DNA of 64,000 nt. Origin: Bryobacterales bacterium. Lineage in GTDB: Bacteria > Acidobacteriota > Terriglobia > Bryobacterales > UBA6623. Below the pieces are notes generated by a model. The model was not told the origin of the DNA. It ran no database searches and was given only the letters and a program-made list of their open reading frames with translations. Each line of letters begins with the position of its first letter. The stretch's first letter is position 1. The stretch is taken from NCBI GenBank assembly GCA_965226215.1, contig CBDDCH010000002.1, forward strand, positions 1,342,282 through 1,406,281, in the 5' to 3' direction. Shown piece by piece: positions 9,241-64,000 of the stretch. The position numbers were made by a program, and so were the translations under genes.

Positions 9241-9333
9241 AGACCAAGCGCGGTCTACGGTCCACGTTCGAATCCGGCTTATACGTCATCGATCAACGTT
9301 GGATGAAATCCCGGCGGTCTCAGACGCCGGTAA

Positions 9334-11183: not shown

Positions 11184-11490
11184 TGCTGGGTTGCATAAGT
11201 TCCCGATCGTTTATAGGCCGGAAATCTCTGGACCGCTCGGTCGAAAACCCGGGGGTTTTGATCCCCTTGGGTGGGCCTGAGGCTGGTGGCAGGACCGGAC
11301 TCTTGAGGGGGACTGACCGCTCCCTGACGGTCGCGGCTCCGTTTATCTTGGCCAAGGCCCATGTACACTCCCTCACGGTCGCGGCTTGGAAGGCTCTGCG
11401 AACAAACCACTTCCGGGCCAGACGGACGATCGTATGATCCTTCCGGAAAGGGCTTTTTTCAATACGCGAACTTTTGCAACCAAGCACTAG
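11180..11490. repeat. MITE-like element, family A, copy A1 (long form, 311 bp)
   Basis: Terminal inverted repeats are CTAGTGCTGGGTTGCATAAGTTC... and ...GAACTTTTGCAACCAAGCACTAG. Short forms are at 27819-27995 and 21555-21732. A1 carries an extra internal segment of about 134 bp that also occurs alone at 24135-24295. Confidence 0.8.
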
Positions 11491-15649: not shown

Positions 15650-16656
15650 GGTCGTTACCAACCCGACCGCAGTGTATACCGGCGCCTTGGTCGTTGCCGG
15701 CACGCAAGCCGCGCCGGCAATCCCAGTGATTGGCGGCATCGTCAGCAGCGCCAGTTTTGCCCCGAACACACCGGCGGCGCCTGGTTCCATCCTGGCCGTT
15801 TTCGGCCAGAACTTCGGCATGACCAACCGGAACTTTCTGTTCCCGTCCACTCGATTTGAGAACGAGGGCGTATCGGTTCTGTTTGACGGCACGGCCGCGC
15901 CGCTGTTTGGCGTGTTTGGAGCAACTCCCTTCTCGCAGATCAACGTCCTGGCGCCGACCGATCTGCCCGAAATGGGCCAGGTTCAAGTGAAGGTCACCAA
16001 TTCGGCCGGAACCAGCGATATGTTCATGCTGGCGATGGCGCCGGCGAGCACGGGTATTTATCGCGCCGACCCGGTGGGCCGCTTGTACGCGGCGGCTTTG
16101 GTTGCCTTCGACCCCGACGTCCCGAATCGTGGGCCGACCAGGCATCTGGTCATTCCCGCTTCGACAGCGGCCACGCTGGGCATCCCGACGAACTGCAAGG
16201 CGGACGGGGTGGCTCCTTTAGCCGATTGCGGGGAGCCGGTGTCTCCGGGCGTGATCCTACAGATCTTCGTTACGGGTCTGGGCAAGGCCACGCCGGGTGG
16301 CGATCCGGCGGGCGATCCCTTGCCGGCGGGAATGGTAGCCCCCGGCGTCCCTGCGTACAACACGGTTGAGACGCCCGAGGTGACGATCGGAGGAATGCCG
16401 GCGAGAGTTGATTTCTCCGGGCTAGCGCCCGGCTTTTCAGGGTTGTATCAGATCAACGCGCTGGTGCCTTTAGGGGCGCAGGCGGGCGATCAGGTTCCGC
16501 TTACCATCCGCATGCCCAGCGAGGCCACGGGGGATACGTCGAACATAGCGATTGCCGCCCCGTAAGGTCGGTGAGAAGTCGTTCGTCTGCAGACTGATTC
16601 GGCGCCAGCCAAGAGATCGCTCCCTACAGAGCTGGAGTTATTTCCTTTTCGCCAAG

Positions 16657-24134: not shown

Positions 24135-24295
24135 ATTTTCGCCGGGGGAGTGCCCATGAGCCTTCGCCAAAATAAACGGAGCCGCGACCGTCAGGGAACG
24201 GTCAGTCCCCTTCAAGAGTCTGGTCCTGTCACCAGCCTCAGGCCCACTCAAGGGAATCAAAACCCCCGGGTTTTCGACCGAGCGAAAGCCTAATC
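24135..24295. repeat. Solo copy of the ~150-bp segment found nested inside MITE-A1
   Basis: The reverse complement matches 11240-11385 (GGTCGAAAACCCGGGGGTTTTGAT.CCCTTG.GTGGGCCTGAGGCTGGTG.CAGGACC.GACTCTTGA.GGGGACTGACCG.TCCCTGACGGTCGCGGCTCCGTTTAT). Confidence 0.7.
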
Positions 24296-34511: not shown

Positions 34512-35197
34512 CGAACCGCTTCCTCGACGGGTAAGCAAAACTGATAACCCACGCCGCGGATCGTCTTGATCAGTGTTCGATCCGCCTCCAGTTTCTTCCG
34601 CAGGTGACTGATGTGGACGTCGATCGAACGGTCGAACGCCGAGGCTTTCCGGTCGTAGAGGTGTTCGGTGATGGCGTCACGCGAGACCACCTCGCCGGCC
34701 GAGCGCATGAGCATCTCAAGGATGTCGAACTCCAGCGTGGTTAGGGTGACCGTCCGGCTGTCGACGAACCCCTGCCGAGCGGCGAAGTCCAACATAACCC
34801 CGTTGACTTCCAAGTGGCGGGAGGCGGCAACCGGCTGCGATTTGACCCGTCGAAGGATGGCTCGTATGCGGGCGGCCAACTCATGCGGGTTAAACGGCTT
34901 CAACAAATAGTCGTCGGCACCGAGTTCCAAGCCTACGATTCGATCCACATCCTCCCCGCGAGCGGTCAGCATCAGAATGGGAATTTGGCTTTCTTGGCGA
35001 ACCTGACGCAGTATCTCAAAACCGTCCAGGCCCGGCAGCATGACATCAAGCACCACAAGGTCATGACCGCCCTCCAGAGCCCGGCGTAAGCCGCGAGTCC
35101 CCTCGTATTCATGGTCAAGATGGTAGCCCTCCTGTTTCAGAAACTTCTCCAGGAGGCCGCCCAACTCCACGTCGTCATCGATCAGCAATACCTGCAC
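34508..35197 (-). CDS. OmpR/PhoB-family response regulator (CpxR-like)
   Basis: MQVLLIDDDVEL..., DLVVLDVMLPGLDG, ...MLTARGE..., LGADDYLLKPF, and a C-terminal winged helix ...IKTIRGVGYQF. Confidence 0.9.
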   Translation of the reverse strand: MQVLLIDDDVELGGLLEKFLKQEGYHLDHEYEGTRGLRRALEGGHDLVVLDVMLPGLDGFEILRQVRQESQIPILMLTARGEDVDRIVGLELGADDYLLKPFNPHELAARIRAILRRVKSQPVAASRHLEVNGVMLDFAARQGFVDSRTVTLTTLEFDILEMLMRSAGEVVSRDAITEHLYDRKASAFDRSIDVHISHLRKKLEADRTLIKTIRGVGYQFCLPVEEAVR

Positions 35198-39648: not shown

Positions 39649-40418
39649 ATCGTGAACCGTACCGAGACGTCTACCTGGGTCGAGCGTCTTCGGCGGCAAG
39701 CACGGGATTGCACTGACTCTGCAGGCGCCAGCCCCAAGCGCCCGTTTCCCGTTGCTCAGAGTGCGAACTTCGCCAGCCGCTGAACTCGCTCGTGGTTAGC
39801 GCGGAGGGGTGGCCGCTCCTACGCTGCGCTGGCGAGAAACGCGTACTAACTGGTGGACTCCGGGCTACCTCGCATAGCTTACGAGCGAGCCCTCAGCGGG
39901 CTAGGGATCGTATTGTAAATGATTGAAATCGTTCTGTTTATCTTCCAATTGGCTTTGTTTGGTAATTTTTTTGAGTCGGCCGCTTCCGCGGGCGAAAAAA
40001 ACCATTGGAAGGTGTGAAAAAACGCCGCGGACACCCGACCGTGACACCACGCTCGCCGGCACTACCAATACTGGCACTCTAAAAGAAGTTTAGTGATAAC
40101 CGGCTTGCGGCGTTCCCCGGTCTTGTCGCCTGTCTGGCACAGCCTCCTGCGTCTATCTTATCGCGGGCAACGAGGATTTCCCCGGATAAGGGCCAAGAAG
40201 TTACAGAAAACAAACGATGTTCCCGCCCGTGACTGGCGGATTGGAGTCACGGTTCTCAATGGGATTGAGGGTTGAGCAGGGTTGAGGAGTTGTGCTCGGA
40301 GTTCCTTGGAGGCTCTATCTTGGACGTGGTTGGGGGTACCCAGGCAACGGCCGGTTTTTGGCTGCTCGCACGCTCTCTGGCGTTGCGCGCTTCGTGCCGG
40401 GCCGCCTATCCTCGGACT

Positions 40419-40938
40419 ATGGCAAAGAACAAAGTATCAAGGCGCAAGCTCTTGGCGGGCTCGTTGGCAGCTGCGGGCTTCGGGCATGGCGGCGCCCGGC
40501 GCGGCGCAGGGTAGCCCGGATCGTGCTGAGCAACCCCAAGGCGGGATCTGGGAAAGACCGCCTTCCCAGCTCAACCGGGGGAACCGCCGGAACGTGATCC
40601 TGCTCAACGTCGATACCTTCCGGGCGGACAATCTGCAGTGCTACGGAGGGAATGGGCTGGTCCAGTGCCCTCGCCTGGACCGGTTTGCCGAAGACAGCGT
40701 CATCTTTGACGACGTCTACCCAGAGGGCATGCCGACGATCCCAACTCGCCGCGTGTTGTGGACGGGCCGCGGTATCCTCCCCTTTTCCTACTACCACCAA
40801 CATGAGCCGTCCGGAAAGCCTTCCGGGTTGCGCTTCACCCACGACAGGACGGCCCCCAGTACTCCGAACCCCTCCATGCCGGCGATACACAGTCTCTCAC
40901 CATTTACCGCTACTTCAAAACGCATCCTTCCATGGTAG
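40419..40938 (+). pseudogene. Sulfatase/alkaline-phosphatase-superfamily gene remnant (frameshift after the Tat signal, truncated)
   Basis: The Tat signal MAKNKVSRRKLLAGSLAAAGFG is in frame 3 and stops at 40514. The mature N-terminus NVILLNVDTFRADNLQCYGGNGLVQCPRLDRFAEDSVIFDDVYPEGMPTIPTRRVLWTGR is in frame 1. That ORF ends at 40938, about 150 aa into what is normally a >=450-aa enzyme. Confidence 0.6.
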
Positions 40939-41008
40939 AAGAGTGCGGCGACCCAACCCGGTAGTATAGACTTTCGACATATATCCCTAAGACTCTCGGG
41001 GGGAAACG

Positions 41009-41212
41009 GTGAAGAAAGCCAAGCTCTTCAAAAACGGCCAGAGTCAAGCCGTTACGCTGCCCAAGGAATTTCGCCTGCCGGGTACCGAGGTGGGGGTGCG
41101 GAAGGTCGGCACGGCAGTGTTGTTAGTGCCGCTTAAACGCGGCTGGGACAGTCTGTTTGAAAGCCTTGCGGAATTCTCCGACGACTTTCCGGGCGGAAGG
41201 AGGAAAGAGTAA
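41009..41212 (+). CDS. AbrB/SpoVT-fold antitoxin (VapB/MazE-like), no cognate toxin adjacent
   Basis: MKKAKLFKNGQSQAVTLPKEFRLPGTEVGVRKVGTAVLLVP is the classic swapped-hairpin antitoxin N-terminus. No PIN or MazF ORF follows. Confidence 0.75.
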   Translation: MKKAKLFKNGQSQAVTLPKEFRLPGTEVGVRKVGTAVLLVPLKRGWDSLFESLAEFSDDFPGGRRKE

Positions 41213-41228
41213 TGTTTACCCTTTTTAC

Positions 41229-42264
41229 CGGAATGGGGTATCCACTTGACTCAGGTAACCCCAACATCTTGTGGTTGGGCTCACGGGGCCTCAGCGTCCC
41301 AGTCGGCGACGATCGATCGATACGGCGTTGGGTCCACGGCGACTGCCTGCTGCACAAGGCGGTAGAAGAGTTTTCCCCGGCTGCGTGAGTTGCGCCGGTT
41401 GAAGCGGAACACAAACTCGTCGAGGTAGTAGTCCAGATGCTCGTGGCTAACCGCGCCTTGGTGCGTGCCCAGCAGCCAGCGCTTGAGCAACGAGATCGCT
41501 TGGTGCACCCTCGGCAATAATTCCGAGGCCTGCTTGCGGCGGCCCGACAGAAAGACGATGCGATGCTGGTAGCCCTTCTTCTCCAGCGGCTCGTAGCCCA
41601 GCCAGCCGTCGGTGTGCACAACGCTTCCCGGCTCGACCGACTCCTCCACGAAGGGCATCAAACTGGCCGCCGATGCGTTCCGCACGCGCTGCATGCGGAT
41701 CCGTCCTAGCCCGCGGCCTCTCTCTTCCGCGGCTACTGCAATCAAGGCTTTACGCTCGGTCTGCCGGCCGCTCACACCCTCTTCCTCAGCGCCCCAATAG
41801 GTCTCATCGACCTCGACTACGCCCGCCAATCGCTCCCGCCCCGGACGCACCATCGCTCGCCGCAGCTTGTGCATCCAGGTCCACGCGGTTTGATAGCTGC
41901 CCAACCCGAGAACGCGCTGCAGACCCAGCGCGCTGACCCCGTTCTTTTGCGAAGTGACGTGCCAGATCGCCCGGAACCACAGCCGCAGCGGCTTACGTGT
42001 GTCTTGGAAGATCGTGCCCGAGGTCACCGACGTCTGCCGCCCGCAGCGAGCGCATTCGAACCACACTTTGCGCACCGGCCAAGCCCGCTCATGCCCGCAT
42101 CCCGGACAGCGGAAACCCTCCGGCCAGCGCAACGCGGACAGATAGTCGCGACAGGCCTCTTCGCTGGCGAAGCGTACCTCGAACTCGAGCAGGTCGCGTG
42201 GATAATCCTCCACGAAGGCGCATACTACATCTTGGGGTCACCTGAGTCAAGTGGATACCCCATT
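41229..42264 (-). mobile_element. IS1595-family insertion sequence, copy 2, with 8-bp TSD TTTTTACC
   Basis: The same 1036-bp block as 1952-2987. TTTTTACC occurs at 41222-41229 and 42263-42270. The exact end/TSD register is ambiguous by a few bp; net inserted length is 1041 bp. Confidence 0.85.
41281..42213 (-). CDS. IS1595-family transposase
   Basis: 310 aa, 1 aa different from 2004-2936 (R6 vs G6). Confidence 0.85.
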   Translation of the reverse strand: MEDYPRDLLEFEVRFASEEACRDYLSALRWPEGFRCPGCGHERAWPVRKVWFECARCGRQTSVTSGTIFQDTRKPLRLWFRAIWHVTSQKNGVSALGLQRVLGLGSYQTAWTWMHKLRRAMVRPGRERLAGVVEVDETYWGAEEEGVSGRQTERKALIAVAAEERGRGLGRIRMQRVRNASAASLMPFVEESVEPGSVVHTDGWLGYEPLEKKGYQHRIVFLSGRRKQASELLPRVHQAISLLKRWLLGTHQGAVSHEHLDYYLDEFVFRFNRRNSRSRGKLFYRLVQQAVAVDPTPYRSIVADWDAEAP

Positions 42265-42280
42265 TTTACCGTACTTTTAG

Positions 42281-43941
42281 CCAGGATTTCCGATTTGGCT
42301 CCTCTGACGGCACGAGTCTACACCCTCACCCGGCGAAGCGCAACCATTTCTCCACCCGAAAGAGGCGGCGGCTGAGGCGGGACCGATCGAGCCCCCTTCT
42401 TGCCCCTCATTGGGGCTGATCCGCCGCTGCGAAGTCAATTTCGCAGACACCCTTCCGAGCTTCCGTCCTCAGTACTCAGGTTTCGCATTCGGCAAGTCGC
42501 GTGCTACCCGCCCGGCACAGGCAGCGCCCAGATCCTCCGCAGCATGTCGCCAAACAGGCGCCGGTTCAGATGTCCCTCCGCGAACAAGAGCCAGTAATAC
42601 CGCGCGTGTTTAATTAACCGTCCGCCCGTCTTCATCAGCCGGTGCTGGAAGCTCGTCAGCGACCAGCTCTTGATCCGTTGCGGCAGCCCCAGCCGCCGCC
42701 ACAAGTTGCCCAGGTTATAGGCCAGCACGCTGAGCTGCAAGCGCACCTCGTTCGCCCGGAAGCGATGGCACGACAGCCGCGTCCAGTGCGTCGCTTGCTT
42801 ACCTTCTTTGATCCACTGCTCCGCCGTGCCGCGCTTGTTGTAGAAACGCACCACCGACCGGCTTGGCAAGCTCATGTTCGTCACGATAAAACCGACGCGC
42901 GCGAATAGCTCGCCCTGGTGGTGCTCGACCTTGGCGACAACTCGTCTGGGCCCCTTCCAGCTCTCCGCCTGATAGCGAAAGCTCTTGTAGCGCACTAGCG
43001 GCTTGCGGCCGGGCCTCCCCGGCGGACGAAACAGGATGTCTTCGATCTCCAGCTCCAGGCTCTTATTGGCCGGAATGCGGATCGCGTAGTCCGCGCCGCG
43101 CTCCTCCAGTGCTTCGTAGATCTCGGGCTTGGCGAAGGCGGCATCGGCGCGAAAGGTGACCTGTTTGCCTTCGGCCAGTTGGCGCTCGATCTCCGGCAAC
43201 AATAGCTCATCCCAGTCCTCGGCGCTGTGCACGTTGCCGGGACGCAGCTTGGCAGCGAGGCAATCACCATGACCGTTGAACAAAAGCAACGGGTGGTAGC
43301 AGACCGACTCGAAGTGTCCGTTGTAGGCACTGCCTTCCTGTTGGCCATGGACCGGACTCTCGGTGGAGTCCATGTCCAGAACGACCCGCTCGGAGTCGTC
43401 GAACGCCTCCGCTTGCCCGACCAGCTCTCGGTTCAGCGCCATCAGCCCCAGCAGGTTCTCTTCGCTCGCCAGCATCTCCGTCTCGAAGCCGTGCAGCGTC
43501 GAGGTCAAGGCCGCACCGCGATCCCAGATCTTCTGCGAGCCGATCAAGCGAAACGTCGGGTCAGCCGACACTCGGACGGCGTCGTTGACGTCCTCGTAGC
43601 CTGCCAAGCGGCTGTAGACCGACTGCCGCAACAGATCAGCGAACGTGAACTGCTTGTTTGTGCCTTGCCGGGAGTCGGTGAGATGCTCGCCGATCAGTTT
43701 CCCGAGTCCGAGTCGCTCATCCAACTCCCGAACCAGGATCAAGCCACCGTCGGAAGTGACGTGCGATCCCTGGAAATCGACTTTCAACGAGCCGTTGAAA
43801 CTTAGCTGGAATGGCTTGGTTTGTTTTTCACCCATTGGGTGTTGGCCTCCATGGCGTCCTCATCGGGCTCTAGCCCCTATGAATAAAGACGCTCAAGCCC
43901 GCCGGAAGGTAGAGAGGTCTGAATCAAATTGGAAATGCGGG
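42281..43941 (-). mobile_element. IS1380-family insertion sequence, copy A (1661 bp) with 5-bp TSD TTTAG
   Basis: Ends are CCAGGATTTCCGATTTGGCT and (inverse) CCCGCATTTCCAATTTGATT. TTTAG occurs at 42276-42280 and 43942-43946. Confidence 0.85.
42504..43835 (-). CDS. IS1380-family transposase (DDE_Tnp_1-like)
   Basis: 443 aa. The N-terminus ...VTSDGGLILVRELDERLGLGKLIGEHLTDSR is characteristic of IS1380 transposases. Confidence 0.8.
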   Translation of the reverse strand: MGEKQTKPFQLSFNGSLKVDFQGSHVTSDGGLILVRELDERLGLGKLIGEHLTDSRQGTNKQFTFADLLRQSVYSRLAGYEDVNDAVRVSADPTFRLIGSQKIWDRGAALTSTLHGFETEMLASEENLLGLMALNRELVGQAEAFDDSERVVLDMDSTESPVHGQQEGSAYNGHFESVCYHPLLLFNGHGDCLAAKLRPGNVHSAEDWDELLLPEIERQLAEGKQVTFRADAAFAKPEIYEALEERGADYAIRIPANKSLELEIEDILFRPPGRPGRKPLVRYKSFRYQAESWKGPRRVVAKVEHHQGELFARVGFIVTNMSLPSRSVVRFYNKRGTAEQWIKEGKQATHWTRLSCHRFRANEVRLQLSVLAYNLGNLWRRLGLPQRIKSWSLTSFQHRLMKTGGRLIKHARYYWLLFAEGHLNRRLFGDMLRRIWALPVPGG

Positions 43942-44324
43942 TTTAGCACTCCTCTTTTTACCCGGCTCTCTTGTCGCAGATTCCGTTGACGTTTCGCTAT
44001 TCCCGATTGCCATGGCGATGTCCAAAGACAAACAGACGCTATTTGTGATTGGTACAGACCCGGCCGAAAGTGAGGATACTCTGCATGTGATCGACATTCC
44101 GTCCAGGCAGGCTACTCGAATCAAACTACCCAACAGCACTACGAGCGATGTGAGAAGTTTGTGCGTTGGCCCGTCGAGCGTCGCAATACCTTCCCCAGGT
44201 GGCGTGATTCTCGTGCTTGACCCTGACACCTTGCAAATTCGATCCGTTACCACTGGCAACATTCTCTTTCCACATTCCTGTACTTTCGGACCCGACGGCT
44301 CGCTGTATGTTGGCGCAGACTCAA

Positions 44325-45985
44325 CCAGGATTTCCGATTTGGCTCCTCTGACGGCACGAGTCTACACCCTCACCCGGCGAAGCGCAACCATTTCTCCACC
44401 CGAAAGAGGCGGCGGCTGAGGCGGGACCGATCGAGCCCCCTTCTTGCCCCTCATGGGGGCTGATCCGCCGCTGCGAAGTCAATTTCGCAGACACCCTTCC
44501 GAGCTTCCGTCCTCAGTACTCAGGTTTCGCATTCGGCAAGTCGCGTGCTACCCGCCCGGCACAGGCAGCGCCCAGATCCTCCGCAGCATGTCGCCAAACA
44601 GGCGCCGGTTCAGATGTCCCTCCGCGAACAAGAGCCAGTAATACCGCGCGTGTTTAATTAGCCGTCCGCCCGTCTTCATCAGCCGGTGCTGCAAGCTCGT
44701 CAGCGACCAGCTCTTGATCCGTTGCGGCAGCCCCAGCCGCCGCCACAAGTTGCCCAGGTTATAGGCCAGCACGCTGAGCTGCAAGCGCACCTCGTTCGCC
44801 CGGAAGCGATGGCACGACAGCCGCGTCCAGTGCGTCGCTTGCTTACCTTCTTTGATCCACTGCTCCGCCGTGCCGCGCTTGTTGTAGAAACGCACCACCG
44901 ACCGGCTTGGCAAGTTCATGTTCGTCACGATAAAACCGACGCGCGCGAATAGCTCGCCCTGGTGGTGCTCGACCTTGGCGACAACTCGTCTGGGCCCCTT
45001 CCAGCTCTCCGCCTGATAGCGAAAGCTCTTGTAGCGCACTAGCGGCTTGCGGCCGGGCCTCCCCGGCGGACGAAACAGGATGTCTTCGATCTCCAGCTCC
45101 AGGCTCTTATTGGCCGGAATGCGGATCGCGTAGTCCGCGCCGCGCTCCTCCAGTGCTTCGTAGATCTCGGGCTTGGCGAAGGCGGCATCGGCGCGAAAGG
45201 TGACCTGTTTGCCTTCGGCCAGTTGGCGCTCGATCTCCGGCAACAATAGCTCATCCCAGTCCTCGGCGCTGTGCACGTTGCCGGGACGCAGCTTGGCAGC
45301 GAGGCAATCACCATGACCGTTGAACAAAAGCAACGGGTGGTAGCAGACCGACTCGAAGTGTCCGTTGTAGGCACTGCCTTCCTGTTGGCCATGGACCGGA
45401 CTCTCGGTGGAGTCCATGTCCAGAACGACCCGCTCGGAGTCGTCGAACGCCTCCGCTTGCCCGACCAGCTCTCGGTTCAGCGCCATCAGCCCCAGCAGGT
45501 TCTCTTCGCTCGCCAGCATCTCCGTCTCGAAGCCGTGCAGCGTCGAGGTCAAGGCCGCACCGCGATCCCAGATCTTCTGCGAGCCGATCAAGCGAAACGT
45601 CGGGTCAGCCGACACTCGGACGGCGTCGTTGACGTCCTCGTAGCCTGCCAAGCGGCTGTAGACCGACTGCCGCAACAGATCAGCGAACGTGAACTGCTTG
45701 TTTGTGCCTTGCCGGGAGTCGGTGAGATGCTCGCCGATCAGTTTCCCGAGTCCGAGTCGCTCGTCCAACTCCCGAACCAGGATCAAGCCACCGTCGGAAG
45801 TGACGTGCGATCCCTGGAAATCGACTTTCAACGAGCCGTTGAAACTTAGCTGGAATGGCTTGGTTTGTTTTTCACCCATTGGGTGTTGGCCTCCATGGCG
45901 TCCTCATCGGGCTCTAGCCCCTATGAATAAAGACGCTCAAGGCCGCCGGAAGGTCGAGAGGTCTGAATCAAATTGGAAATGCGGG
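44325..45985 (-). mobile_element. IS1380-family insertion sequence, copy B (1661 bp) with 5-bp TSD CTCAA
   Basis: Same ends as copy A. CTCAA occurs at 44320-44324 and 45986-45990. Confidence 0.85.
44548..45879 (-). CDS. IS1380-family transposase
   Basis: 443 aa, 2 aa different from 42504-43835. Confidence 0.8.
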   Translation of the reverse strand: MGEKQTKPFQLSFNGSLKVDFQGSHVTSDGGLILVRELDERLGLGKLIGEHLTDSRQGTNKQFTFADLLRQSVYSRLAGYEDVNDAVRVSADPTFRLIGSQKIWDRGAALTSTLHGFETEMLASEENLLGLMALNRELVGQAEAFDDSERVVLDMDSTESPVHGQQEGSAYNGHFESVCYHPLLLFNGHGDCLAAKLRPGNVHSAEDWDELLLPEIERQLAEGKQVTFRADAAFAKPEIYEALEERGADYAIRIPANKSLELEIEDILFRPPGRPGRKPLVRYKSFRYQAESWKGPRRVVAKVEHHQGELFARVGFIVTNMNLPSRSVVRFYNKRGTAEQWIKEGKQATHWTRLSCHRFRANEVRLQLSVLAYNLGNLWRRLGLPQRIKSWSLTSLQHRLMKTGGRLIKHARYYWLLFAEGHLNRRLFGDMLRRIWALPVPGG

Positions 45986-46289
45986 CTCAAACGGAGGAGG
46001 ACTCACCCCAGAAGTCGAGGTCTTCTCGCCTCAACTGAATCTCATGGCAGAATTTGAACTGGGAACAGGGTCAGTGTCTGCCATGGCCGCTGCTGACAAC
46101 GGCAAAGTCTTATTCGTATTTGGAGCAAGTGTGCAGAGGCCCCTGGCAGTAATTGAAAACATGGGAGTCAGGTGGCTGCAAGGCGACCGGGTTGACAAGC
46201 CAAACTCTATGAGAAGTCCAAACGGCAAGGATATCTACATGTCCTCCTGGTGGGGTCCCGGAATAGATCGTTGGGACTCAATTACAGAA

Positions 46290-47588
46290 GGCTCTTCCGG
46301 GTTTTAAGTGGGCGAAGGAGCCAGATCGAGTTTCCCACAGTGGAAGTAGATGGCGTTGATGAAGTTCTGTTGATTGCGGAAACCGCGCGCCGTGGCCTTG
46401 ACCCATTGAATCCTTGAGTTCAACCCCTCGCTGACCGCGTTCGTAATGCGGTGTTTCAGATACGCGAGTATGTTTTCGAGGCGAGCCGTCAACATCCGCG
46501 CTACGGTGACCATCGGCGTCAGCCGGCTGCGACTCGCCCAGCCGCGCCATTGCTCGAAGAAAGCTCGCGCCGCCGATTCGCGACGATAGTCGAACAGCCG
46601 CATCGCCGTTTCCTTCAACGCCCACGCCCGCGCCGTCTTCAAGTCGCTTTCGCGCAGCGCGCGGAACTCGCGCCAGGCGTCCTCGGAAAAGTTCGCCGGA
46701 TGCCGCAGCCAAGCGTACTTCGTGCCTGTCAAACGCTCGTCGCCGAGGGCCAGTAAACGCTTGTTCTCCGCCCGCCGCACCTGGTCCACCGCCTTCGCCA
46801 GATGCGCCGCGATGTGATATTTGTCGTAAACGATCTTTTTCTCCGATTCGTCGAGATGCTCCCGGGTCGAGGCGACGTAAGGATCCCACATGTCCATCGC
46901 GACGGCCTCGACTCGGGCGAGTTGCTCTGCGCTCAACGTCTTCCAAAAGCCGTCCAGGCTGGCCTGGCGGCGTCCCTCGGCGACGAACAACACGCGCGAG
47001 CGGTTGAGATCGTTGACGACGGTGAGATAGCGATGGCGCTTGCGGAAGCTCTTCTCGTCGACGCCCAGGTAGGGAATCGGCTCTGCCGCGCGACGTTCGA
47101 GCCCACGTTGCACGGCGCGTTCCAGGATGCCGTGAATCTCGTCCCAGCTCAGCGCCAGCAACTCGGCGATGCCTTGCTGGCTGGCTTCCTTCAGCCACGA
47201 GATCGCGAGAGCTTCAAACAGCACGGTGAAGCGGCTGGAAGCCTCGGCCCAGGGCAGTCGCACGACGCGCGGCCCGTGCTCGGAGCAGTCGCTGCGCGGC
47301 GGCCGGGCGTGCAGGATCGTGCGGTACTGACAGGTGTCGAGGTGACGCCAGCGGCGTTCGGGCTGATGATCGTGGAGTGCGCACACGGCGCTGCATTGGC
47401 GGCACGGCCAGCGGACTTGCTCGTCGTGTTCGAGGAAGACGTGGACTTCGCCGTCGGCTCGGCGCAGCTCCACTCGCACGACTTTCCAGGGACTTTCGAT
47501 GCCCAGAATCTGGCGGTATAGCTCGCGGTCTTGCATCCCGCGAGACTACCACCGAGCCTCACTCGCCCACTAGAAACCCGGAAGAACC
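46290..47588 (-). mobile_element. ISL3-family insertion sequence, copy 3 (1299 bp) with 8-bp TSD TTACAGAA
   Basis: Ends are GGCTCTTCCGGGTTTTAAGTGGGCGA and (inverse) GGTTCTTCCGGGTTTCTAGTGGGCGA. TTACAGAA occurs at 46282-46289 and 47589-47596. Confidence 0.9.
46304..47536 (-). CDS. ISL3-family transposase (apparently full length)
   Basis: 410 aa. Same protein as 3280-4482 apart from the C-terminal tail (...RGFRNQQNFINAIYFHCGKLDLAPSPT). Confidence 0.85.
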   Translation of the reverse strand: MQDRELYRQILGIESPWKVVRVELRRADGEVHVFLEHDEQVRWPCRQCSAVCALHDHQPERRWRHLDTCQYRTILHARPPRSDCSEHGPRVVRLPWAEASSRFTVLFEALAISWLKEASQQGIAELLALSWDEIHGILERAVQRGLERRAAEPIPYLGVDEKSFRKRHRYLTVVNDLNRSRVLFVAEGRRQASLDGFWKTLSAEQLARVEAVAMDMWDPYVASTREHLDESEKKIVYDKYHIAAHLAKAVDQVRRAENKRLLALGDERLTGTKYAWLRHPANFSEDAWREFRALRESDLKTARAWALKETAMRLFDYRRESAARAFFEQWRGWASRSRLTPMVTVARMLTARLENILAYLKHRITNAVSEGLNSRIQWVKATARGFRNQQNFINAIYFHCGKLDLAPSPT

Positions 47589-47929
47589 TTACAGAAAAAC
47601 TGACCTCTTGGCCAAACTTGCCCGCGCTTGGGTACCTGGGATTCCCTTCTGAAGATGTTAGCCTGGCTTACGGAGTTGATTCTTGCGAAGGTATCTTCGT
47701 GTTGGACCTTACTGTCCCCAACGCCACATTTTTCACACGGACAGCTGTCAAAGGATGCGGAAAAATACACCAACTAATCCGTGGTTTTGCGGCGGTGACG
47801 CTAGCGAACGGTAATCACCTCCTGATGATTCTGAAGGGTGGCCAAGTGGAGTTCCTTGAGGTTGACCCAAACAACTTGCCAGGCTCTACCCCTAATCCAC
47901 CAGGCTCTACCCCCAACCCAAAGTTTTCG

Positions 47930-49343
47930 GAGCTATAACCAGAAGTTGTGGATGAGCCTCTGAGGGGAGGCGGCGTATCCTGACGATTGAGGAAGCAACT
48001 CAATCGTTTTCTGGAAAGGAACAAGGAGGATACGCCATGAGTCAGTGTGAAGCTGCTGAGAGCAGCAGTCAAGTCAACCCCCAAGTCATTGATGGAAAGG
48101 AACGCTCGCCCTTGGATGAGGTGCTGCGCCAAGGAGCGCGCCAGATGCTCGTCAAGGCCGTGGAAGCCGAAGTGACCGCCTACATCGAAACGCATCAGCA
48201 CGAAGTCGACCAGGACGGCCGGCGGCTGGTGGTGCGCAACGGTCACGCCCGCGAGCGCACCATCGTCAGCGGCGTGGGTCAGCTGAAGATCCAGGCGCCG
48301 CGGGTCGACGATCGCCGAGTCGATGAGCAGGGCCGGCGCTTTCGTTTCACTTCCCAGATCCTGCCGCCGTATCTGCGGCGCACGAAGAGTGTGGAGGAGT
48401 TGATCCCCTGGTTGTACCTGAAAGGGATCTCGACGGGCGATTTCAGCGAAGCGCTGGAGGCCTTGCTGGGGCCCGACGCTCCGGGCCTGTCGGCGACGAC
48501 GGTGGTGCGTCTCAAAGACGTCTGGCGCCGCGAGTACGAGGCTTGGTCAAAGCGTGACCTCAGCGGCCAGCGGTTTGTTTACATTTGGGCCGATGGCATC
48601 TACTCGAATGTTCGTCTGGACGATGAACGGCAGTGTTTGCTGGTTGTGATGGGAGCACTCGAAGACGGTCGCAAGCAACTGCTGGCGGTGCACGACGGCT
48701 TTCGCGAAAGCGAACTGTCGTGGCAGGAGTTGCTGGAGGACTTGAAACGGCAGGGGCTCGAGCTGCCGCCGAAGTTGGCGGTGGGCGACGGAGCGATGGG
48801 GTTTTGGGCGGCACTGCGGAAAGTCTATCCGGCGACCGGTGAGCAACGCTGCTGGCTCCACAAGACGGCCAACGTGCTCAATAAGCTGCCGCAGAGCATG
48901 CAGGGCAAAGCCAAGCAGGCGCTGCGCGACATCTATCTTGCCCAGAGTCGGCAGACGGCGGAGGCCGCTCTGGACCGTTTCAAGAACCTATACGAGAAGA
49001 AGTTCCCCAAAGCGGTCGAGTGCCTGGAAAAAGACCGCCAAGTGCTGCTGGCTTTCTACGACTTTCCGGCCGAGCACTGGGGGCACTTGCGGACGACGAA
49101 CCCGATCGAGTCCACCTTTGCGACGGTCCGTTTGCGGCAGCGACGAACGAAGGGTTGTGGCAGCCGCGAAGCGTCGTTAACGATGGTCTTCATGCTGGCC
49201 CGCCAAGCCGAGCGCCACTGGCGACGCCTGAACGGTTCGGAAGTGATTGTTCATGTCTTAGAGGGAAAGGTTTTCAAGGATGGATTGATGGTTCAGGAAA
49301 ACGCCGCCTGACCTCGCCCATCCACAACATTTGACAATATCTC
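47930..49343 (+). mobile_element. IS256-family insertion sequence, copy 2 (1414 bp) with 9-bp TSD AAGTTTTCG
   Basis: Same ends as copy 1. AAGTTTTCG occurs at 47921-47929 and 49344-49352. Confidence 0.9.
48037..49311 (+). CDS. IS256-family transposase
   Basis: 424 aa, 1 aa different from 14268-15542 (Q vs E). Confidence 0.9.
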   Translation: MSQCEAAESSSQVNPQVIDGKERSPLDEVLRQGARQMLVKAVEAEVTAYIETHQHEVDQDGRRLVVRNGHARERTIVSGVGQLKIQAPRVDDRRVDEQGRRFRFTSQILPPYLRRTKSVEELIPWLYLKGISTGDFSEALEALLGPDAPGLSATTVVRLKDVWRREYEAWSKRDLSGQRFVYIWADGIYSNVRLDDERQCLLVVMGALEDGRKQLLAVHDGFRESELSWQELLEDLKRQGLELPPKLAVGDGAMGFWAALRKVYPATGEQRCWLHKTANVLNKLPQSMQGKAKQALRDIYLAQSRQTAEAALDRFKNLYEKKFPKAVECLEKDRQVLLAFYDFPAEHWGHLRTTNPIESTFATVRLRQRRTKGCGSREASLTMVFMLARQAERHWRRLNGSEVIVHVLEGKVFKDGLMVQENAA

Positions 49344-50351
49344 AAGTTTTCGGTAGAAGGTGTAGTCAATGCCGCCAACTTTGAACCTGTGCCTCGGCCT
49401 GATGGTCCTCTGGCTCGCGGAGCGATCATCTCGATCTTTGGTACGAATCTGGCCAAAACTGCTGCTGGCGCTAATGTTCTGCCCTTGCCCACGAACTTAG
49501 GCGGAACCCGGGTGGTGGCAACTGACAACGTTGGGACAGAACACGAATGCCCGCTGTACTATGCGTCTCCGGGTCAACTGAACGTGCTGGTGCCCTATGA
49601 GATCCCCAAAGGGTCCTGGGCCAGACTACAGGTCCGTGTTGGTGACCTGTCAAGCGGTACATTTGGTTTATCGGTGGTTGATCTGGCTCCTGCTTTGTTC
49701 CGCATGCCAGACGGGGAACCTATAGTTACGCACGCCTGCGACGGGGCCTTGGTAACCGCAGCGAACCCGTTGCGGGCGCAACCAGTAGATTCGTGCGGCC
49801 CCCTCTTTACACTCTATGCCACCGGGCTTGGTCCGACTGTCCCGAGTGTCAAAAGCGGCGACCCGGCACCATCAGATCCCCTGGCCTGGACAGTTCCAGA
49901 GACCCGGGTAAAACTGTCGATCTCGGGCCAAACGGCGGAGATACTCTATTCTGGCTTGACCCCTGACCTTGCATCCTTGTACCAGGTCAACGCAGCATTA
50001 CCGCCTGGCTTGAGTTCTGGCCAACACCAAGGGAACTTAGTTGTTGACGACTCCACAGCAGACACTTTTTCGCTCCATGTCGAATAGCCCGGCAGTCCCG
50101 TAGCGCAGCCATCTGAGTTGAGCTGTCAAGAAAAAAGTAGCTGCAGGGTTGAGTTTGTTGCACAGGTAATGCAGTTCGGATTTACAGCCGCTGGCAGCTG
50201 TCGCCCCAGGGGTGGCGAAGAGTCTCGACGCGGCACACTGAGAGCGTGAGCTACCACAGGACTCGATGTCGCCAGGAATGGCGACTCGGCACGCCGGGAA
50301 GCGTGCGCCACAAAAGCAAAAGCCGCGCCGGCGGGGTATTTTTCTGGAACC

Positions 50352-51803
50352 CTACTTGCGCCAGAAAGCCGGGGTGAAGATGACCAGCACGGTGTAGAAT
50401 TCCAGCCGTCCGGCGATCATGCAGCCGGCGAGAACCCATTTCGCCAACAGCGGCAGATGTCCGTAGTTTTCCGCGGGGCCCACCCCGCCCAGACCCGGGC
50501 CGACATTGAACATCGAGGCCGCCACGGCCGCGATCGACGTGAAAACGTCAACACCCATCGCCGCCAGCAATACGCAAGAGACAAAGTTCACGACGAAGGC
50601 GAGATAGATCAGGTTGAGAAGACTCTGAATCGTTGACTCACGAATCACTTGACTACCCAGCCGCACGGCGAACACACCGTGCCGCTCGACCATCCGTTTG
50701 AACTCGCGGTCCACTACGCGCGCCAGCAATAGGATGCGCGAGGTCTTTAGACCTCCGGTGGTGGACCCCGTGCAGCCGCCGATGAACATGAGCGCCAGAA
50801 GCAGCAATTGCGGGAGCGGATGCCAAACTTCGAAATTGTCGGTCACAAGACCCGTCCCCGTTAGAATGGCACTAACCTGAAACCAGGCACGCCGGAAAGC
50901 CAGTGACGGGCTGTAGCCGCTATCGATGACTAGCGTGATGAAGATGACAGCCGTCGCCGCGGCGACCAGCAGAAGGTAATATCGGACCTCGACATCCGAG
51001 AAGAAGCTGCGAGGCCGCCTCTCTACCCACAGCCGGTAATGCTGCACGAAGCTGATCCCGCCCAGTAGCATGAACCCGATGACGATGTACTCGATCAGGG
51101 GACTTTCAAACGCGCCAATGCTGGCCGTGCGGGTAGAAAACCCGCCAGTGGCAACCGAGGAAAACGTGTGACAGATCGCGTCGAAACTATTCATGCCGGC
51201 CGATAGCAGGGCGACAAACTCGGCTACGGTCAAGGCGGCGTAGATCTTCCATAACGACAGGGCCGTTTCGGTAATCCGCGGTTGCAGCTTTTCCGACTTC
51301 GCCCCCGAGAACTCGGCGCGGTAAAGTTGCATGCCGCCGTGACCCACCAACGGTAAAACGGCAATTCCCAACAACACGATGCCCATGCCGCCGAGCCAGT
51401 GGGAGAAGCAGCGCCACAACTGCAAGGGGTTGGGCAAGACCTCGACCTTGTCCAATACCGTGGCGCCGGTCGTTGTAAACCCGGAGGTCGCCTCAAAGAA
51501 GGCGTCCGTGAAGGTCGGGAAGACGGGAGAGAAATAGAAAGGAAGACAGCCGAAAAACGCGACACTCACCCAAACGGCAACGACCATGAGCAGACCTTCG
51601 CGCTGAGTCAAGTCGCGAGCCGGCCGCGACCCCAAGCCCCATAGCAAGCCGCCGCTGACAGCGGTGATCGCAATAGCGGGTCCGAACAATTCGAGATGGG
51701 GATCCCCGACCACCAGGCCGTAGACGACGGGGACGAGCATCGTGCCGGCCAGAGCTAACAGAAACTGCCCCAAGATGTAGGCGATCGCGCGAAAGCGAAT
51801 CAC
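50352..51803 (-). CDS. trkH: Trk-type potassium uptake protein TrkH
   Basis: 483 aa and polytopic, with ...TSGFTTTGATVL..., ...GGFSTR..., ...GCTGSTTGGLK... selectivity-filter-like repeats. It has a 4-nt overlap with trkA. Confidence 0.9.
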   Translation of the reverse strand: MIRFRAIAYILGQFLLALAGTMLVPVVYGLVVGDPHLELFGPAIAITAVSGGLLWGLGSRPARDLTQREGLLMVVAVWVSVAFFGCLPFYFSPVFPTFTDAFFEATSGFTTTGATVLDKVEVLPNPLQLWRCFSHWLGGMGIVLLGIAVLPLVGHGGMQLYRAEFSGAKSEKLQPRITETALSLWKIYAALTVAEFVALLSAGMNSFDAICHTFSSVATGGFSTRTASIGAFESPLIEYIVIGFMLLGGISFVQHYRLWVERRPRSFFSDVEVRYYLLLVAAATAVIFITLVIDSGYSPSLAFRRAWFQVSAILTGTGLVTDNFEVWHPLPQLLLLALMFIGGCTGSTTGGLKTSRILLLARVVDREFKRMVERHGVFAVRLGSQVIRESTIQSLLNLIYLAFVVNFVSCVLLAAMGVDVFTSIAAVAASMFNVGPGLGGVGPAENYGHLPLLAKWVLAGCMIAGRLEFYTVLVIFTPAFWRK

Positions 51804-59442: not shown

Positions 59443-60996
59443 CTAATGCCGAAAGTGCCGCACGCCGGTGAACACCATCGCCAGGCCCAGGCGGTTGGCG
59501 GTATCGATGACTTCCTGATCGCGGCGCGAGCCACCGGGCTGTATGACGGCGGTGACGCCGTGGCGGGCGACCTCTTCCACACCGTCGGGGAAGGAAAAAA
59601 AGGCGTCCGAACCGACGACCGTTCCCTTGAGCGGCAGCAGGGCGTTCGATGCTCCGATACGGGCCGCATCCACACGGCTCATCTGGCCGGCCCCGACGCC
59701 GGCGGTCTGACCGGGCCGGGCGTACACGATTGCGTTTGACTTGACGTGCTTAACGACTTTCCAGGCAAACTCGAGGGCTTTCCCCTCGTCATCAGTCGGT
59801 GGGCGCTCGGTGACGACCTTCCGTTCTTCGTCCTCAGGGGTTGGGTCGTCTAGGGTTTGAGCGAGAAAGCCCCCGGAGACGCTCTGCACCGCCAGGTCTA
59901 ATCCGGTTCCCCCTACTTCGAGCAGGCGGATGTTCTTTTTCTGAGTAAGAACCGTCAGGGCTTCGGCGGAATATCCGGGCGCAGCGACGGCCTCAACGAA
60001 TAACTCCGAGACGGCTCGGGCCGCTTCAGCGTCCACCTCTTGGTTGAACGCCAAGACAGACCCAAACGCCGAGACAGGGTCACACTCGAGCGCCTGGCGA
60101 AAGGCTTCAGCCGGGGTTTCCTGCTCCGCGCAGCCGCAGGGGTTGGTGTGCTTGATGATGGCGGCCGCTGGGCGGCTGAACTCCTGAATCAACTGCCAGG
60201 CGGCATCGAGGTCGACGATGTTATTGAACGAAAGCTCCTTTCCGTGGAGCTTCCGCGCGCCGGCAATACCGGCATCACCCGAAGCGTAAAGAGCGCCTAG
60301 CTGATGGGGGTTCTCACCATAGCGCAGGGTCAACTTTCGGGGAACTGAAACGTTCAGCGTCGGCGGAAGCGGCTCAGCCTCTTCTTCGGCGGCAACGTCA
60401 GCGGAGGGGGAAAGCCGAGGAAGGGTCGTGCTGATCGCGCGGTCGTAGGCGGCGGTCAGCTGGAACGCCTTTTGCGCCAGCCTCCAGTGCGTTTCTAGAG
60501 ATAGCTCCCCATCGCGATCTTCGAGCTCCTTGGCGATTTCTCCGTAGTCGGCCGGGTCGGTGACGACGGCGACGTCGGGAAAATTCTTTGCCGCGGCACG
60601 GATCATCGTCGGGCCGCCGATGTCGATGTTCTCGATGATTTCCTCAAAAGTCGCGTCGTCTTGACCGGCGACCTTCTCAAAGGCGTAAAGGTTTACGACG
60701 ATCATGTCGATAAGGCGTATGTGGTGTTTGGAAAGCGCCTGTATGTGTTCAGGGTTGGATCGCACAGCCAGGATTCCGCCGGCGATCGTCGGATGCAGTG
60801 TTTTTACGCGCCCATCGAGCATTTCCGGAAAGCCGGTAAGCTCAGACACTTCCTTGACGGCAAGACCGGACTCACGCAGCAGTCGCGCCGTCCCGCCCGT
60901 CGAGACCAGCTCCACGCCGCGGCCGGCCAACTGGCGCGCGAACTCGACGAGTCCCCTTTTGTCGGTGACGCTGAGAAGTGCTCGGCTGACCTTGCT
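59443..60996 (-). CDS. purH: Bifunctional AICAR transformylase / IMP cyclohydrolase PurH
   Basis: The ATG at 60996 gives [24 protein letters not shown]...[10 protein letters not shown]...GRVKTLHP, with a C-terminal ...[15 protein letters not shown]...[11 protein letters not shown]. Confidence 0.95.
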
Positions 60997-61259
60997 CATT
61001 CGGAGAGGAAGCTGCGGGGAAAAGTGATTCTCCCACTCCTTGCCGGCTCTTGGCAAATAGGCCGCATTTTTTGGCGTAATTTCGGCGTAAGCGCGCGATT
61101 ATCATTGACGCCGATGGAGGTTCTGTCTCAAAATGAGATGAGGACTCCCGGTCACGCGTTGGGGCGAACTCTCAGCCGACCTAAGGTGAGTGATCAAAAC
61201 CTAATAAACGTCCTGGATCGCGTCTCGGAGCCTGCTCATTCCAATTCGGGGAGGGCGGC

Positions 61260-62400: not shown

Positions 62401-64000
62401 TCACTCCCCAACGATGCGGATGAAACCATCCTCGTCCACCGCCGCGGTGTCGCCGGTGACAAACCAGCCGTTGCGCATGACGGAACCAGTTTGGGCCGCG
62501 TCGCCGAGATATCCCCTCATCAGGCTGGGGCCTTTGACCAGCAGCATACCCTCGATATTGCTTGGGAGTGTCTCTCCGCTATCGGGATCGACGACCTTCG
62601 CGCTGACGGCCGGCAGGGGGTGGCCGACGGTCCCGGGTTTCGAGCCGATCTGACGCCTCCTGCCGTGGATGAAGTTGGGAACGTTGACCGCCACGACAGG
62701 CGACATCTCGGTGCAGCCATAGCCCTCGATCAGGGGCAGGAGAAACTTTTCTTCAAATTCAGCCGCTAGGGATTCCGGCGGCGCCTCGCCGCCGAGCAGC
62801 GCATAGCGCAGGGAAGCAAAGTCCTCCACCGAGCACTCCCTTACGTAGGTCGAATACATCGCCGGCGTGCCCACGATAATCGTCGCCCGTTGAGAGCGAG
62901 TCAGCTTCCCAACCGTGATTGAGTCAAAGGCGTCGTGGTGATAAATAGCCCCGCAACCGCTCAATAGGGGAAACCACAGGGTTACGGTGAACCCAAAGGC
63001 GTAGTGGAAGGGCAGAACGCCGACAACCCGGTCGGTATTCTCCACCCAGAAAAGCTGCGCCAGGGAATCAACATTGGCGAGGATGTTTCGATGGGAAAGG
63101 ATAACCGGTTTCGGAGGTCCGCCTGTACCTGCCGTGTAGACGACAGTGGCCATACTGTCAGGACTGACAGCTTTCTCACGATAGATCGCTTGCAGCAGGC
63201 GGTTCGGCAGCAGGAAAGTCGCCACAAACACGAGTGCCCTCAGCGCAGTGGAAGTACGCTCGAGGGCGTCTTCGAGGTAGAGGATCTGCCGCACGGGGGG
63301 AAGATCGCGCGGCGGGTGGCGTCGAGAGCAAACGATGGTTTCGATTTCACATTCCCGCACCGCCGCCGCGAGCTTCTCGGGGTCGCGGGCGTCGAGGTTG
63401 ATGGGAATCCGGTCCCCTAGCAGCACGGCAACGTTGGCAACCGCTCCCTGCACGGAGGGGGGAACAAGCAGGCCTACCCGCTCATGAGCCGGCTTTCCGC
63501 TGCCGAGCTGCGTGCGAAGCCACCCGGCAGTCAGCAGAGCTTCGACAAGCGCCCCGCCGTAGCTGAGCCGCACGCCGCTCGAATCCGTCGCGGCCAGGGA
63601 AAACCAGCGCCGCTTCGCGGTTCGTATGAGCCGCAGCTGGAGCTGATCTCGCGGCGCGACGCGGTAGGCCGCCGCCTCGCTTCCCAGCTCCATCACCGCC
63701 AGGCGCACATCCTGCGCCGTCGCCGTGGAAGCCAACGGGTCTCCGAACGAAACCGTGACGCGATAGGGAAACCGCTCCGGCCACCGAAGGAGGAAACGGC
63801 CATCTTTGAAGCTGAAGACGCTGCCCCAGACGCGGTCGAGGTTGACCGGGATGATCGGGGCGTCGAGTCCCTCGATGATTCGCTCAAACCCACGTTTGAA
63901 AGGCAACATGCCGCCGGTCCTAGTGATCGAGCCCTCGGCAAAGATGCAGACGACGTGTCCTTGGCGCAACTGCTCGCGGGCGAGTTCAATCGATTCTGCC
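62401..64000 (-). CDS. Aas-like bifunctional protein: PlsC-type acyltransferase domain plus AMP-binding acyl-(ACP) synthetase domain; 5' end lies outside the window
   Basis: The frame is open to the window edge (..AESIELAREQLRQGHVVCIFAEGSITRTG, the PlsC block III/IV region). The AMP-binding motifs are TVVYTAGTGGPPKPVILSHRN, GYGCTEMSP and GWFVTGDTAAVDEDGFIRIVGE. Confidence 0.8.
   Translation of the reverse strand, partial: AESIELAREQLRQGHVVCIFAEGSITRTGGMLPFKRGFERIIEGLDAPIIPVNLDRVWGSVFSFKDGRFLLRWPERFPYRVTVSFGDPLASTATAQDVRLAVMELGSEAAAYRVAPRDQLQLRLIRTAKRRWFSLAATDSSGVRLSYGGALVEALLTAGWLRTQLGSGKPAHERVGLLVPPSVQGAVANVAVLLGDRIPINLDARDPEKLAAAVRECEIETIVCSRRHPPRDLPPVRQILYLEDALERTSTALRALVFVATFLLPNRLLQAIYREKAVSPDSMATVVYTAGTGGPPKPVILSHRNILANVDSLAQLFWVENTDRVVGVLPFHYAFGFTVTLWFPLLSGCGAIYHHDAFDSITVGKLTRSQRATIIVGTPAMYSTYVRECSVEDFASLRYALLGGEAPPESLAAEFEEKFLLPLIEGYGCTEMSPVVAVNVPNFIHGRRRQIGSKPGTVGHPLPAVSAKVVDPDSGETLPSNIEGMLLVKGPSLMRGYLGDAAQTGSVMRNGWFVTGDTAAVDEDGFIRIVGE

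Follow-up and report, generated by a model that had tools for sequence, protein, structure and literature searches.

A single gene in a 64,000-nt stretch of DNA (the window) from an uncultured soil lineage of the Bryobacterales (Acidobacteriota; GTDB lineage UBA6623) carries five insertion sequence (IS) elements from four families, and excision of the five elements together with one copy of each target duplication restores an uninterrupted open reading frame (ORF) of 1773 nt. Alleles of the same gene in sister strains, which hold some of these insertions and exact empty sites for the others, place an IS1595 element first and an IS256 element second, followed by two IS1380 copies and an ISL3 element. 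The window belongs to a metagenome-assembled genome in which near-identical IS copies (>99.5%) are numerous, and the locus was read at 41000-50400. The sister contigs (L001, 370 kb; L002, 45.6 kb; L033, 5.37 Mb; L031, 5.67 Mb; L032) derive from other ENA metagenome assemblies and show about 99.7% identity to the window across about 27 kb of shared synteny. From left to right, the gene pieces and the elements that separate them are:

41212-41229, forward strand: gene piece 1, 18 nt, encoding MFTLFT, with the left TTTTTACC copy at 41222-41229
41230-42262, reverse strand: IS1595-family element of 1033 bp, its 310-aa transposase intact (41281-42213); second TTTTTACC at 42263-42270
42271-42280, forward strand: gene piece 2, 10 nt, holding the left TTTAG; joined directly to piece 3 in L001, L002 and L033
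42281-43941, reverse strand: IS1380-family element A, 1661 bp, with a 443-aa transposase; second TTTAG at 43942-43946; window lineage only
43947-44324, forward strand: gene piece 3, 378 nt, with one window-private synonymous single-nucleotide polymorphism (SNP)
44325-45985, reverse strand: IS1380-family element B, 1661 bp; second CTCAA at 45986-45990; window lineage only
45991-46289, forward strand: gene piece 4, 299 nt
46290-47588, reverse strand: ISL3-family element, 1299 bp, with a 410-aa transposase; second TTACAGAA at 47589-47596; window lineage only
47597-47929, forward strand: gene piece 5, 333 nt, with the PGSTPNPPGSTPNP linker, the window-private change L281F and, at 47777-47785, the site that holds a miniature inverted-repeat transposable element (MITE) in L002
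47930-49343, forward strand: IS256-family element, 1414 bp, with a 424-aa transposase; second AAGTTTTCG copy at 49344-49352
49353-50087, forward strand: gene piece 6, 735 nt with the stop, coding for the Soli_cterm domain (TIGR03437), with the window-private changes E533K and N578D

Perfect direct repeats bracket all five elements, inverted repeats are found at each, and all five transposase ORFs are full length and score above the curated family cut-offs, so that an earlier note on this DNA, made from the letters alone, was right to count five IS elements from four families. The IS1595 transposase matches NF033547 (212.9 bits, cut-off 75), PF12762 (107 bits) and, through its N-terminal zinc ribbon, PF12760 (48 bits). 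With an offset of 4 nt its inverted repeats agree at 35 of 40 positions, and the two copies of its 8-bp duplication (TTTTTACC) are identical; terminal inverted repeats and a duplication of this length are typical of the IS1595 family as catalogued in ISfinder. The transposases of IS1380-A and IS1380-B reach 364 and 363 bits against NF033539 (cut-off 180) and 391 and 393 bits against PF13701; the two copies differ at 7 positions, have ends reading CCAGG... and CCCGC..., and lie on 5-bp duplications (TTTAG for A, CTCAA for B), where the IS1380 family has a 4-5 bp duplication, ends starting CC and a length of about 1.6-2 kb. For ISL3 the transposase scores 298 bits against NF033550 (cut-off 180) and 232 bits against PF01610, some 23 of the 26 inverted-repeat positions agree, and the duplication (TTACAGAA) has the 8 bp described for the family (PMC3469429). 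The IS256 transposase (NF033543, 313 bits, cut-off 150; PF00872, Transposase_mut, 215 bits) is accompanied by a 9-bp duplication (AAGTTTTCG), and three other IS256 copies likewise have 9 bp, within the range of 8-9 bp known for the family. The element boundaries of the earlier note are exact for IS1380-A, IS1380-B, ISL3 and IS256 and lie 1-2 nt off for IS1595 (41230-42262, not 41229-42264); used literally, its IS1595 coordinates give a 1770-nt product with mismatched flanks. The left end at 41230 was set by an independent IS1595 copy at 1953-2985, which opens with the same GGAA.

With the corrected IS1595 boundaries the six pieces (18, 10, 378, 299, 333 and 735 nt) join into the 1773-nt ORF that had been proposed, comprising 590 codons and one terminal stop, and the other two frames of the rebuilt sequence contain 24 and 27 stops. 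The successive elements (element plus duplication, modulo 3) shift the frame by 0, 1, 1, 2 and 1; the fragment ORFs are found in frames 2, 3, 2 and 3, as the note had them. The rebuilt protein begins with a signal-like segment, followed by an orphan domain (~330 aa) and a PGSTPNP linker, and ends in a Soli_cterm domain, which was anticipated from the letters and matches TIGR03437 with 155.7 bits (cut-off 29.05) over residues 350-588 and profile positions 1-223 of 225.

Two intact relatives sharing this architecture at almost equal length (P0034, 589 aa; P0060, 578 aa) were found by exhaustive HMMER with query residues 21-329, a search that was needed because a word index queried with the N-terminal domain returned only alleles of the target gene itself. 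Both run from a putative signal peptide through an N-terminal domain of ~330 aa to Soli_cterm, which in P0034 scores 213 bits against TIGR03437. BLASTP aligns the rebuilt protein with P0034 in a single colinear alignment (residues 30-565, E = 6e-56) that spans the IS1380-B, ISL3 and IS256 junctions, and the six pieces thus belong to one gene and not to several. The nearest homolog, on the non-syntenic contig L003, shares 30-52% identity across residues 21-590, and a pattern-based search of the GTDB species representatives, which reaches close relatives only, found no ortholog of the rebuilt protein. The first codons, which run across the IS1595 and IS1380-A junctions, are credible because the L003 homolog likewise has a signal-like N-terminus (MLTVLLMLLCVSTASSQ) immediately ahead of the conserved region; P0060 carries a comparable one (MKLKTLLGILVLAAFGAYGE), and the assignment of these codons to the gene stands with the equivalent signal-like N-termini of the relatives. 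In the rebuilt protein the segment (MFTLFTVLLALLFLPGSLVA, followed by D) is hydrophobic with an A-x-A-like end and no basic n-region, as judged by eye. A different origin of MFTLFT..., as the remnant of a vapC gene overlapping an upstream vapB (TAATG), was ruled out, since the relatives carry an equivalent signal-like segment before the conserved region.

The beta-propeller-like repeats that had been read in the N-terminal domain find remote phmmer matches (E = 1e-10 to 1e-4) to NHL, Vgb_lyase and SGL repeat proteins, centered on residues ~90-117 of the query beginning at residue 21; on the other side, residues 1-349 have no Pfam match, and a single-sequence AlphaFold model of P0002 has a pLDDT of 36 and is unusable. 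A beta-propeller is accordingly a weakly supported lead, drawn from sequence similarity. The L003 homolog (6968-9270), in another genome and another context, is split over three frames, and its cluster-mates P0031 and P0032 read through differently; these splits could be real decay or long-read indel errors.

The closest database proteins to the rebuilt protein are fragments of the same gene in the other ENA metagenome assemblies, and no intact allele was found among 5.8 billion protein clusters. IS1595 is present in every contig that retains the 5' end of the gene, and in L001, L002 and L033 it occupies the identical site with the same duplication, accompanied by 2-6 SNPs. These three contigs lack IS1380-A, IS1380-B, ISL3 and IS256, and at each of the four sites their sequence is that of the window once the element and a single copy of its duplication are taken out. 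Colinearity of L031 and L032 with the window starts at 49093, so that they share the terminal 251 bp of IS256 together with its junction to the gene; upstream of this stretch their IS256 is cut by an IS21-associated rearrangement. Because they share this junction without the window-private SNPs of piece 6, IS256 is older than those SNPs. From the exact empty sites in L001, L002 and L033 and the IS256 junction in L031 and L032, IS1595 is the first insertion, ancestral to all sampled strains and located after codon 6 inside the putative signal peptide; IS256 is the second, preceding the split between the window strain and L031/L032; and IS1380-A, IS1380-B and ISL3 came later, in whichever mutual order. 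This succession, with IS1595 shared and the other four elements lineage-specific over exact empty sites, bears out the proposal of serial capture after a first inactivating hit. The route suggested for ordering the insertions, by divergence between IS copies, was uninformative, as the copies are 99.5-99.8% identical to one another and single out no donors, and the strain comparison was used in its place.

Alleles of the target gene vary at only 10 of 1773 positions, and the substitutions private to the window, at positions 108, 841, 1597 and 1732 of the rebuilt gene, are three nonsynonymous and one synonymous. The sister alleles bear additional lesions of their own. L001 and L033 have a GGA>TGA nonsense mutation at codon 180, and L002 has a non-autonomous 276-bp MITE (10802-11077, corresponding to window 47777-47785). 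Its ends match the IS1595 termini at 87-88% identity, its duplication is ATCCGTGGT, and it brings the independent insertions in the target gene to six, this one in a separate lineage. A search of the window found no copy of this MITE; a 448-kb contig probably carries the same one, judged from the protein calls P0030 and P0026. Comparison with the 5.37-Mb sister strain covers about 40.7 kb and excludes window 26.6-32.9 kb (which holds the ISL3_b copy) and 1-4.5 kb. Over this span the window lineage gained at least five insertions and the sister strain gained none, save an IS1380 beside an IS-rich spacer near 3.1 kb, so that the window lineage looks like the site of an IS burst.

Two of the sister contigs have further mobile DNA. 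In L031 (1-9704) other DNA takes the place of the sequence that precedes the truncated IS256 and contains IS21 (IstA/IstB), two IS5-like transposase genes, a plasmid-type RepA/ParA/ParG module, IS256 fragments, fragments of an 89%-identical ISL3, a VapBC pair and hsdM; it resembles an integrated island of plasmid-like or IS-rich character, or the product of an IS-mediated rearrangement. L002 has a strain-specific IS256 (1351-2764, corresponding to window ~35110-35120) in a two-component response-regulator gene with the duplication CATGGTCAA, and this copy is absent from the window, L001 and L033.

Taken together, the locus is probably a pseudogene that served as a neutral sink during a burst of several IS families, with a modest local preference for AT-rich sites. 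The target would have been a gene of 590 codons whose product, probably secreted, belonged to the large Soli_cterm paralog family, in a genome undergoing expansion of several IS families. Once IS1595 had entered the region of the putative signal peptide in the common ancestor of the sampled strains, the gene would have been non-functional or dispensable, so that later insertions were costless and were retained, while insertions into the surrounding functional genes would have been purged by selection. Each element would have entered by ordinary DDE transposition, leaving the family-typical duplication of 8, 5, 5, 8 or 9 bp, and a preference for AT-rich sites would probably bias landing within tolerated DNA, here the lowest-GC stretch of the window. 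The lineages then diverged, with IS256 in the window strain and L031/L032, IS1380-A, IS1380-B and ISL3 in the window strain, the nonsense codon in L001 and L033, the MITE in L002, and the IS21-associated rearrangement in L031 and L032.

This interpretation is supported by the independent secondary lesions in every lineage (nonsense codon, MITE and IS21-associated rearrangement), by the decay of the neighborhood itself (a truncated sulfatase remnant and an orphan vapB) and by the three-to-one ratio of nonsynonymous to synonymous window-private substitutions. The flanks consist of functional genes (TrkH/TrkA, an amidase, a two-component system and an outer-membrane barrel protein), and these have no window-specific insertions despite a similar density of substitutions. 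Clustering in the gene was evaluated post hoc under uniform placement, ignoring selection on the functional flanking genes, and the probabilities obtained are 5e-6 for at least five of the window's nine IS copies inside the 1.77-kb gene, 3e-5 for at least five of the six polymorphic insertions of the 27-kb colinear span, and, across 40.7 kb, 1.7e-5 for four or more of the five insertions specific to the window. Tolerance appears sufficient to account for the numbers. Insertion events after IS1595 stand to substitutions in the dead gene as ~5-6 to 10, the same order of magnitude as in selection-free E. coli lines, which gain about one IS insertion for every three base substitutions (PMC5009759). 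Elsewhere in the window the IS density is ~1 per 12.5 kb, which, extrapolated from this one window, corresponds to roughly 380 per genome; if that density is representative and ~10-20% or less of the genome is tolerant, a 1.8-kb target with five hits is expected somewhere.

Several observations weigh against a purely neutral sink. That IS1595 alone inactivated the gene is something we infer, and a TTG at 42232 in the right end of IS1595 opens an in-frame hybrid ORF (MGSPESSGYPIFTVLLALLFLPGSLVA...; 42232-42280 into the gene), in which the putative signal peptide still has its hydrophobic core and its cleavage site. The gene caller picked this ORF in one sister contig (P0030), so that the IS1595 hit may not have been fully inactivating. 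The decayed and partly AT-rich ~1.5 kb upstream has no insertions, an outcome with a probability of 0.53^5 (~0.04) for five post-IS1595 events, and neutrality alone may not explain the whole pattern given the AT-rich duplications (P = 8e-4). In addition, the genome-scale expectation leans on the IS density of a single window, and IS1380-A, IS1380-B and ISL3 are known in the gene from this assembly only.

The composition of the target brings in a multi-family hotspot, in which the AT-rich sequence or the DNA or nucleoid structure of the 5' kilobase attracts unrelated transposases. As the earlier note had remarked, AT-rich targets lie in an AT-rich gene: the five duplications contain 10 G+C in 35 nt vs a gene GC of 54%, and random sites in the gene equal or exceed this AT-richness with P = 8e-4, or 0.003 when the MITE site is counted too. 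The gene (GC 0.538 vs a mean of 0.60) falls in the lowest 0.4% of 1773-bp windows and is the lowest-GC 1.77-kb segment of the IS-free window, and all six insertions (the five elements and the L002 MITE) lie within its first 1038 nt, in the N-terminal part of 51.5% GC, with none in the C-terminal part of 57% GC. IS1380-A sits only 18 bp from the end of IS1595, the ISL3 family has been reported to prefer AT-rich regions (PMC3469429), and an ISL3 variant at ~3163 of the window likewise has an AT-rich duplication (CTTCAAAA). However, IS256 and ISL3 take GC-rich targets elsewhere. IS256 lies on the duplications GGTCGTTAC, CGCCTACGA and CATGGTCAA, with a GC of 0.60-0.64 around IS256_b, and the duplication of ISL3_b is CACCAGCA. 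In the gene itself, the MITE site is ATCCGTGGT. Moreover, the partly AT-rich intergenic and decayed 1.5 kb upstream of the gene is insertion-free in every strain, L001, L002 and L033 have the same sequence and gained none of the four later insertions, and the ratio of insertions to substitutions requires no raised local rate. We regard a hotspot as an unlikely explanation of the pile-up; of the composition-driven pile-up proposed earlier, the AT-rich duplications stand, and composition contributes as a secondary effect and not as the main cause.

An assembly artefact, with IS copies misplaced or strain haplotypes threaded into one chimeric path, is suggested by the origin of the window in a metagenome-assembled genome rich in near-identical IS copies and by the restriction of IS1380-A, IS1380-B and ISL3 in the gene to this assembly, whose related strains share public samples. 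For these three elements a strain-chimeric path is formally possible. Yet each element has its own perfect duplication and exact empty sites elsewhere, a pattern that misplacement would not create; the IS1595 junction is reproduced in four independent assemblies and the IS256 junction in two; the 7 differences between IS1380-A and IS1380-B show that they were not collapsed; and window-private SNPs in pieces 3, 5 and 6, between or beside the private insertions, fit a single haplotype. With two of the five junctions recurring in independent assemblies, an argument made from assemblies and not from reads, the copies appear neither collapsed nor misplaced, and we consider an artefact highly improbable.

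Selection may also have favored the loss of Soli_cterm proteins at the cell surface or in the secretome, for example to escape phages or predators or to save cost. This alternative draws on the second gene of this kind in the window:

12929-16565: second Soli_cterm gene, encoding a 737-aa protein and interrupted by IS256_b at 14236-15649

Its product has a signal peptide, a matrixin-like metalloprotease, a CarboxypepD_reg domain and a TIGR03437 match of 127 bits, and IS256_b lies with its duplication (GGTCGTTAC) ~28 codons upstream of the Soli_cterm domain, compared with 4 codons for the IS256 of the target gene. The 5.37-Mb sister strain has an intact, 99%-identical allele (P0081) with a clean empty site, and related genomes have full-length orthologs of 70-82% identity. 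Both Soli_cterm genes of the window are thus IS-disrupted, the second being intact in the sister strain, and, if the target gene still worked through the IS1595 hybrid ORF, it would have been inactivated three times independently, by the nonsense codon, by the MITE and by IS256. However, once a gene is broken more insertions cannot be favored, which leaves hits three to five unexplained; a sample of two genes is too small; and members of a large paralogous family are expected to be dispensable, so that their loss is tolerated without positive selection. Selection for loss is accordingly very unlikely to account for the locus.

A related reading connects the two genes directly. The window holds only two Soli_cterm genes and two IS256 copies, each gene carrying one, and the five window-specific insertions counted over the 40.7 kb (IS1380-A, IS1380-B, ISL3, IS256 and IS256_b) are all in these genes; a sixth, the ISL3 variant at ~3163, is intergenic at the edge of the compared span and was left out of the count. 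That Soli_cterm genes, or the AT-rich 5' kilobase of the target gene, are genuine multi-family insertion targets seems to us rather doubtful. If it were so, a shared DNA-structural or nucleoid-associated feature would guide unrelated transposases, or selection would act to shed such secreted proteins.

Read as a neutral sink, the locus is a clean and well-dated example of known biology, its elements being new members of known families that reveal no new mechanism. Accumulations and nests of IS elements are familiar from IS-expanded genomes, including those of Shigella, Yersinia pestis, Bordetella pertussis, Orientia, Microcystis and Sulfolobus, and retention of IS elements in dead genes is well known there; the rarity first claimed for a five-hit record was overstated. 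As in those genomes, many near-identical copies of several families are present, they are retained where they are costless (in a dead gene, in a spacer or beside another IS), and the gene decays stepwise with its duplications preserved. Unlike in those genomes, five intact elements from four families lie here side by side and not nested in one 1.8-kb gene, natural intermediate alleles are found in sister strains from other samples, and the host is an uncultured member of the Bryobacterales. The nests of retrotransposons between maize genes offer an analogy, in that mobile elements accumulate where they are harmless and their order of insertion can be reconstructed; those nests are built of eukaryotic retroelements inside each other, whereas bacterial DDE transposons have here entered the gene sequence itself. 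Neutral models of IS dynamics have been described (PMC4072520), and high-identity transposase copies are known in the acidobacterium Ca. Solibacter usitatus (PMC3469429). Repeated independent insertions in one gene also characterize the IS186 hotspots at GGGG(N6)CCCC in menC and fimA, which in mutation-accumulation lines of E. coli were hit independently 11-16 times (PMC5009759). In that case a single element enters one motif at the same nucleotide position, in contrast to four unrelated families and six sites that share AT-richness but no motif.

The value of the locus lies in a natural record of decay in which the order of events and the exact empty sites are read directly, and not inferred, from surviving intermediate alleles. 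It shows current activity of IS1595, IS1380, ISL3 and IS256 elements and of an IS1595-type MITE in an uncultured Bryobacterales lineage from soil, whose strains differ sharply in recent transposition, and it offers a rough calibration for neutral DNA, with ~5-6 insertion events to 10 base substitutions. It also carries a warning for annotation, as pipelines will list such loci as strings of small hypothetical ORFs.

Other features of the window surround the target gene or lie farther from it:

1953-2985: IS1595 copy without a target duplication
~3163-4534: ISL3 variant with the duplication CTTCAAAA and a divergent left end of ~150 bp
40282-40938: sulfatase remnant, matching profile positions 1-74 of 301 only
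41009-41212, forward strand: orphan vapB antitoxin gene, whose TAA stop overlaps the ATG of the target gene (TAATG)
59443-61056: PurH
62401-63969: AMP-binding enzyme ORF, 96% identical to an ORF of a Bryobacterales metagenome-assembled genome, in accord with the Acidobacteriota origin assumed in the earlier note

The region upstream of the target gene (39649-41212) is decayed, consisting of a long non-coding stretch, the sulfatase remnant and the orphan vapB. The VapB protein matches NF040493 (72.8 bits, cut-off 60), NF047862 (91 bits) and the Pfam family MazE_antitoxin, and the arrangement of vapB and the target gene is the same in the sister strains. No PIN-domain vapC follows vapB, the overlapping downstream ORF being the Soli_cterm gene, and the pair does not form a VapBC module. 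A second IS-tolerant spot lies in an AT-rich spacer at 1953-4534, where the site of the ISL3 variant is empty in a sister strain (L035 1-1614) that has an IS1380 copy 44 bp leftward. A 139-bp sequence occurs twice in inverted orientation with 92% identity (11234-11372 and 24146-24284), and both copies are also present in L035. Finally, L035 2339-17207, which corresponds to window ~5-21 kb around the second Soli_cterm gene, is unusually dense in toxin-antitoxin pairs, with several PIN/VapC genes accompanied by FitA-like, Phd/YefM-like or VapB antitoxins.

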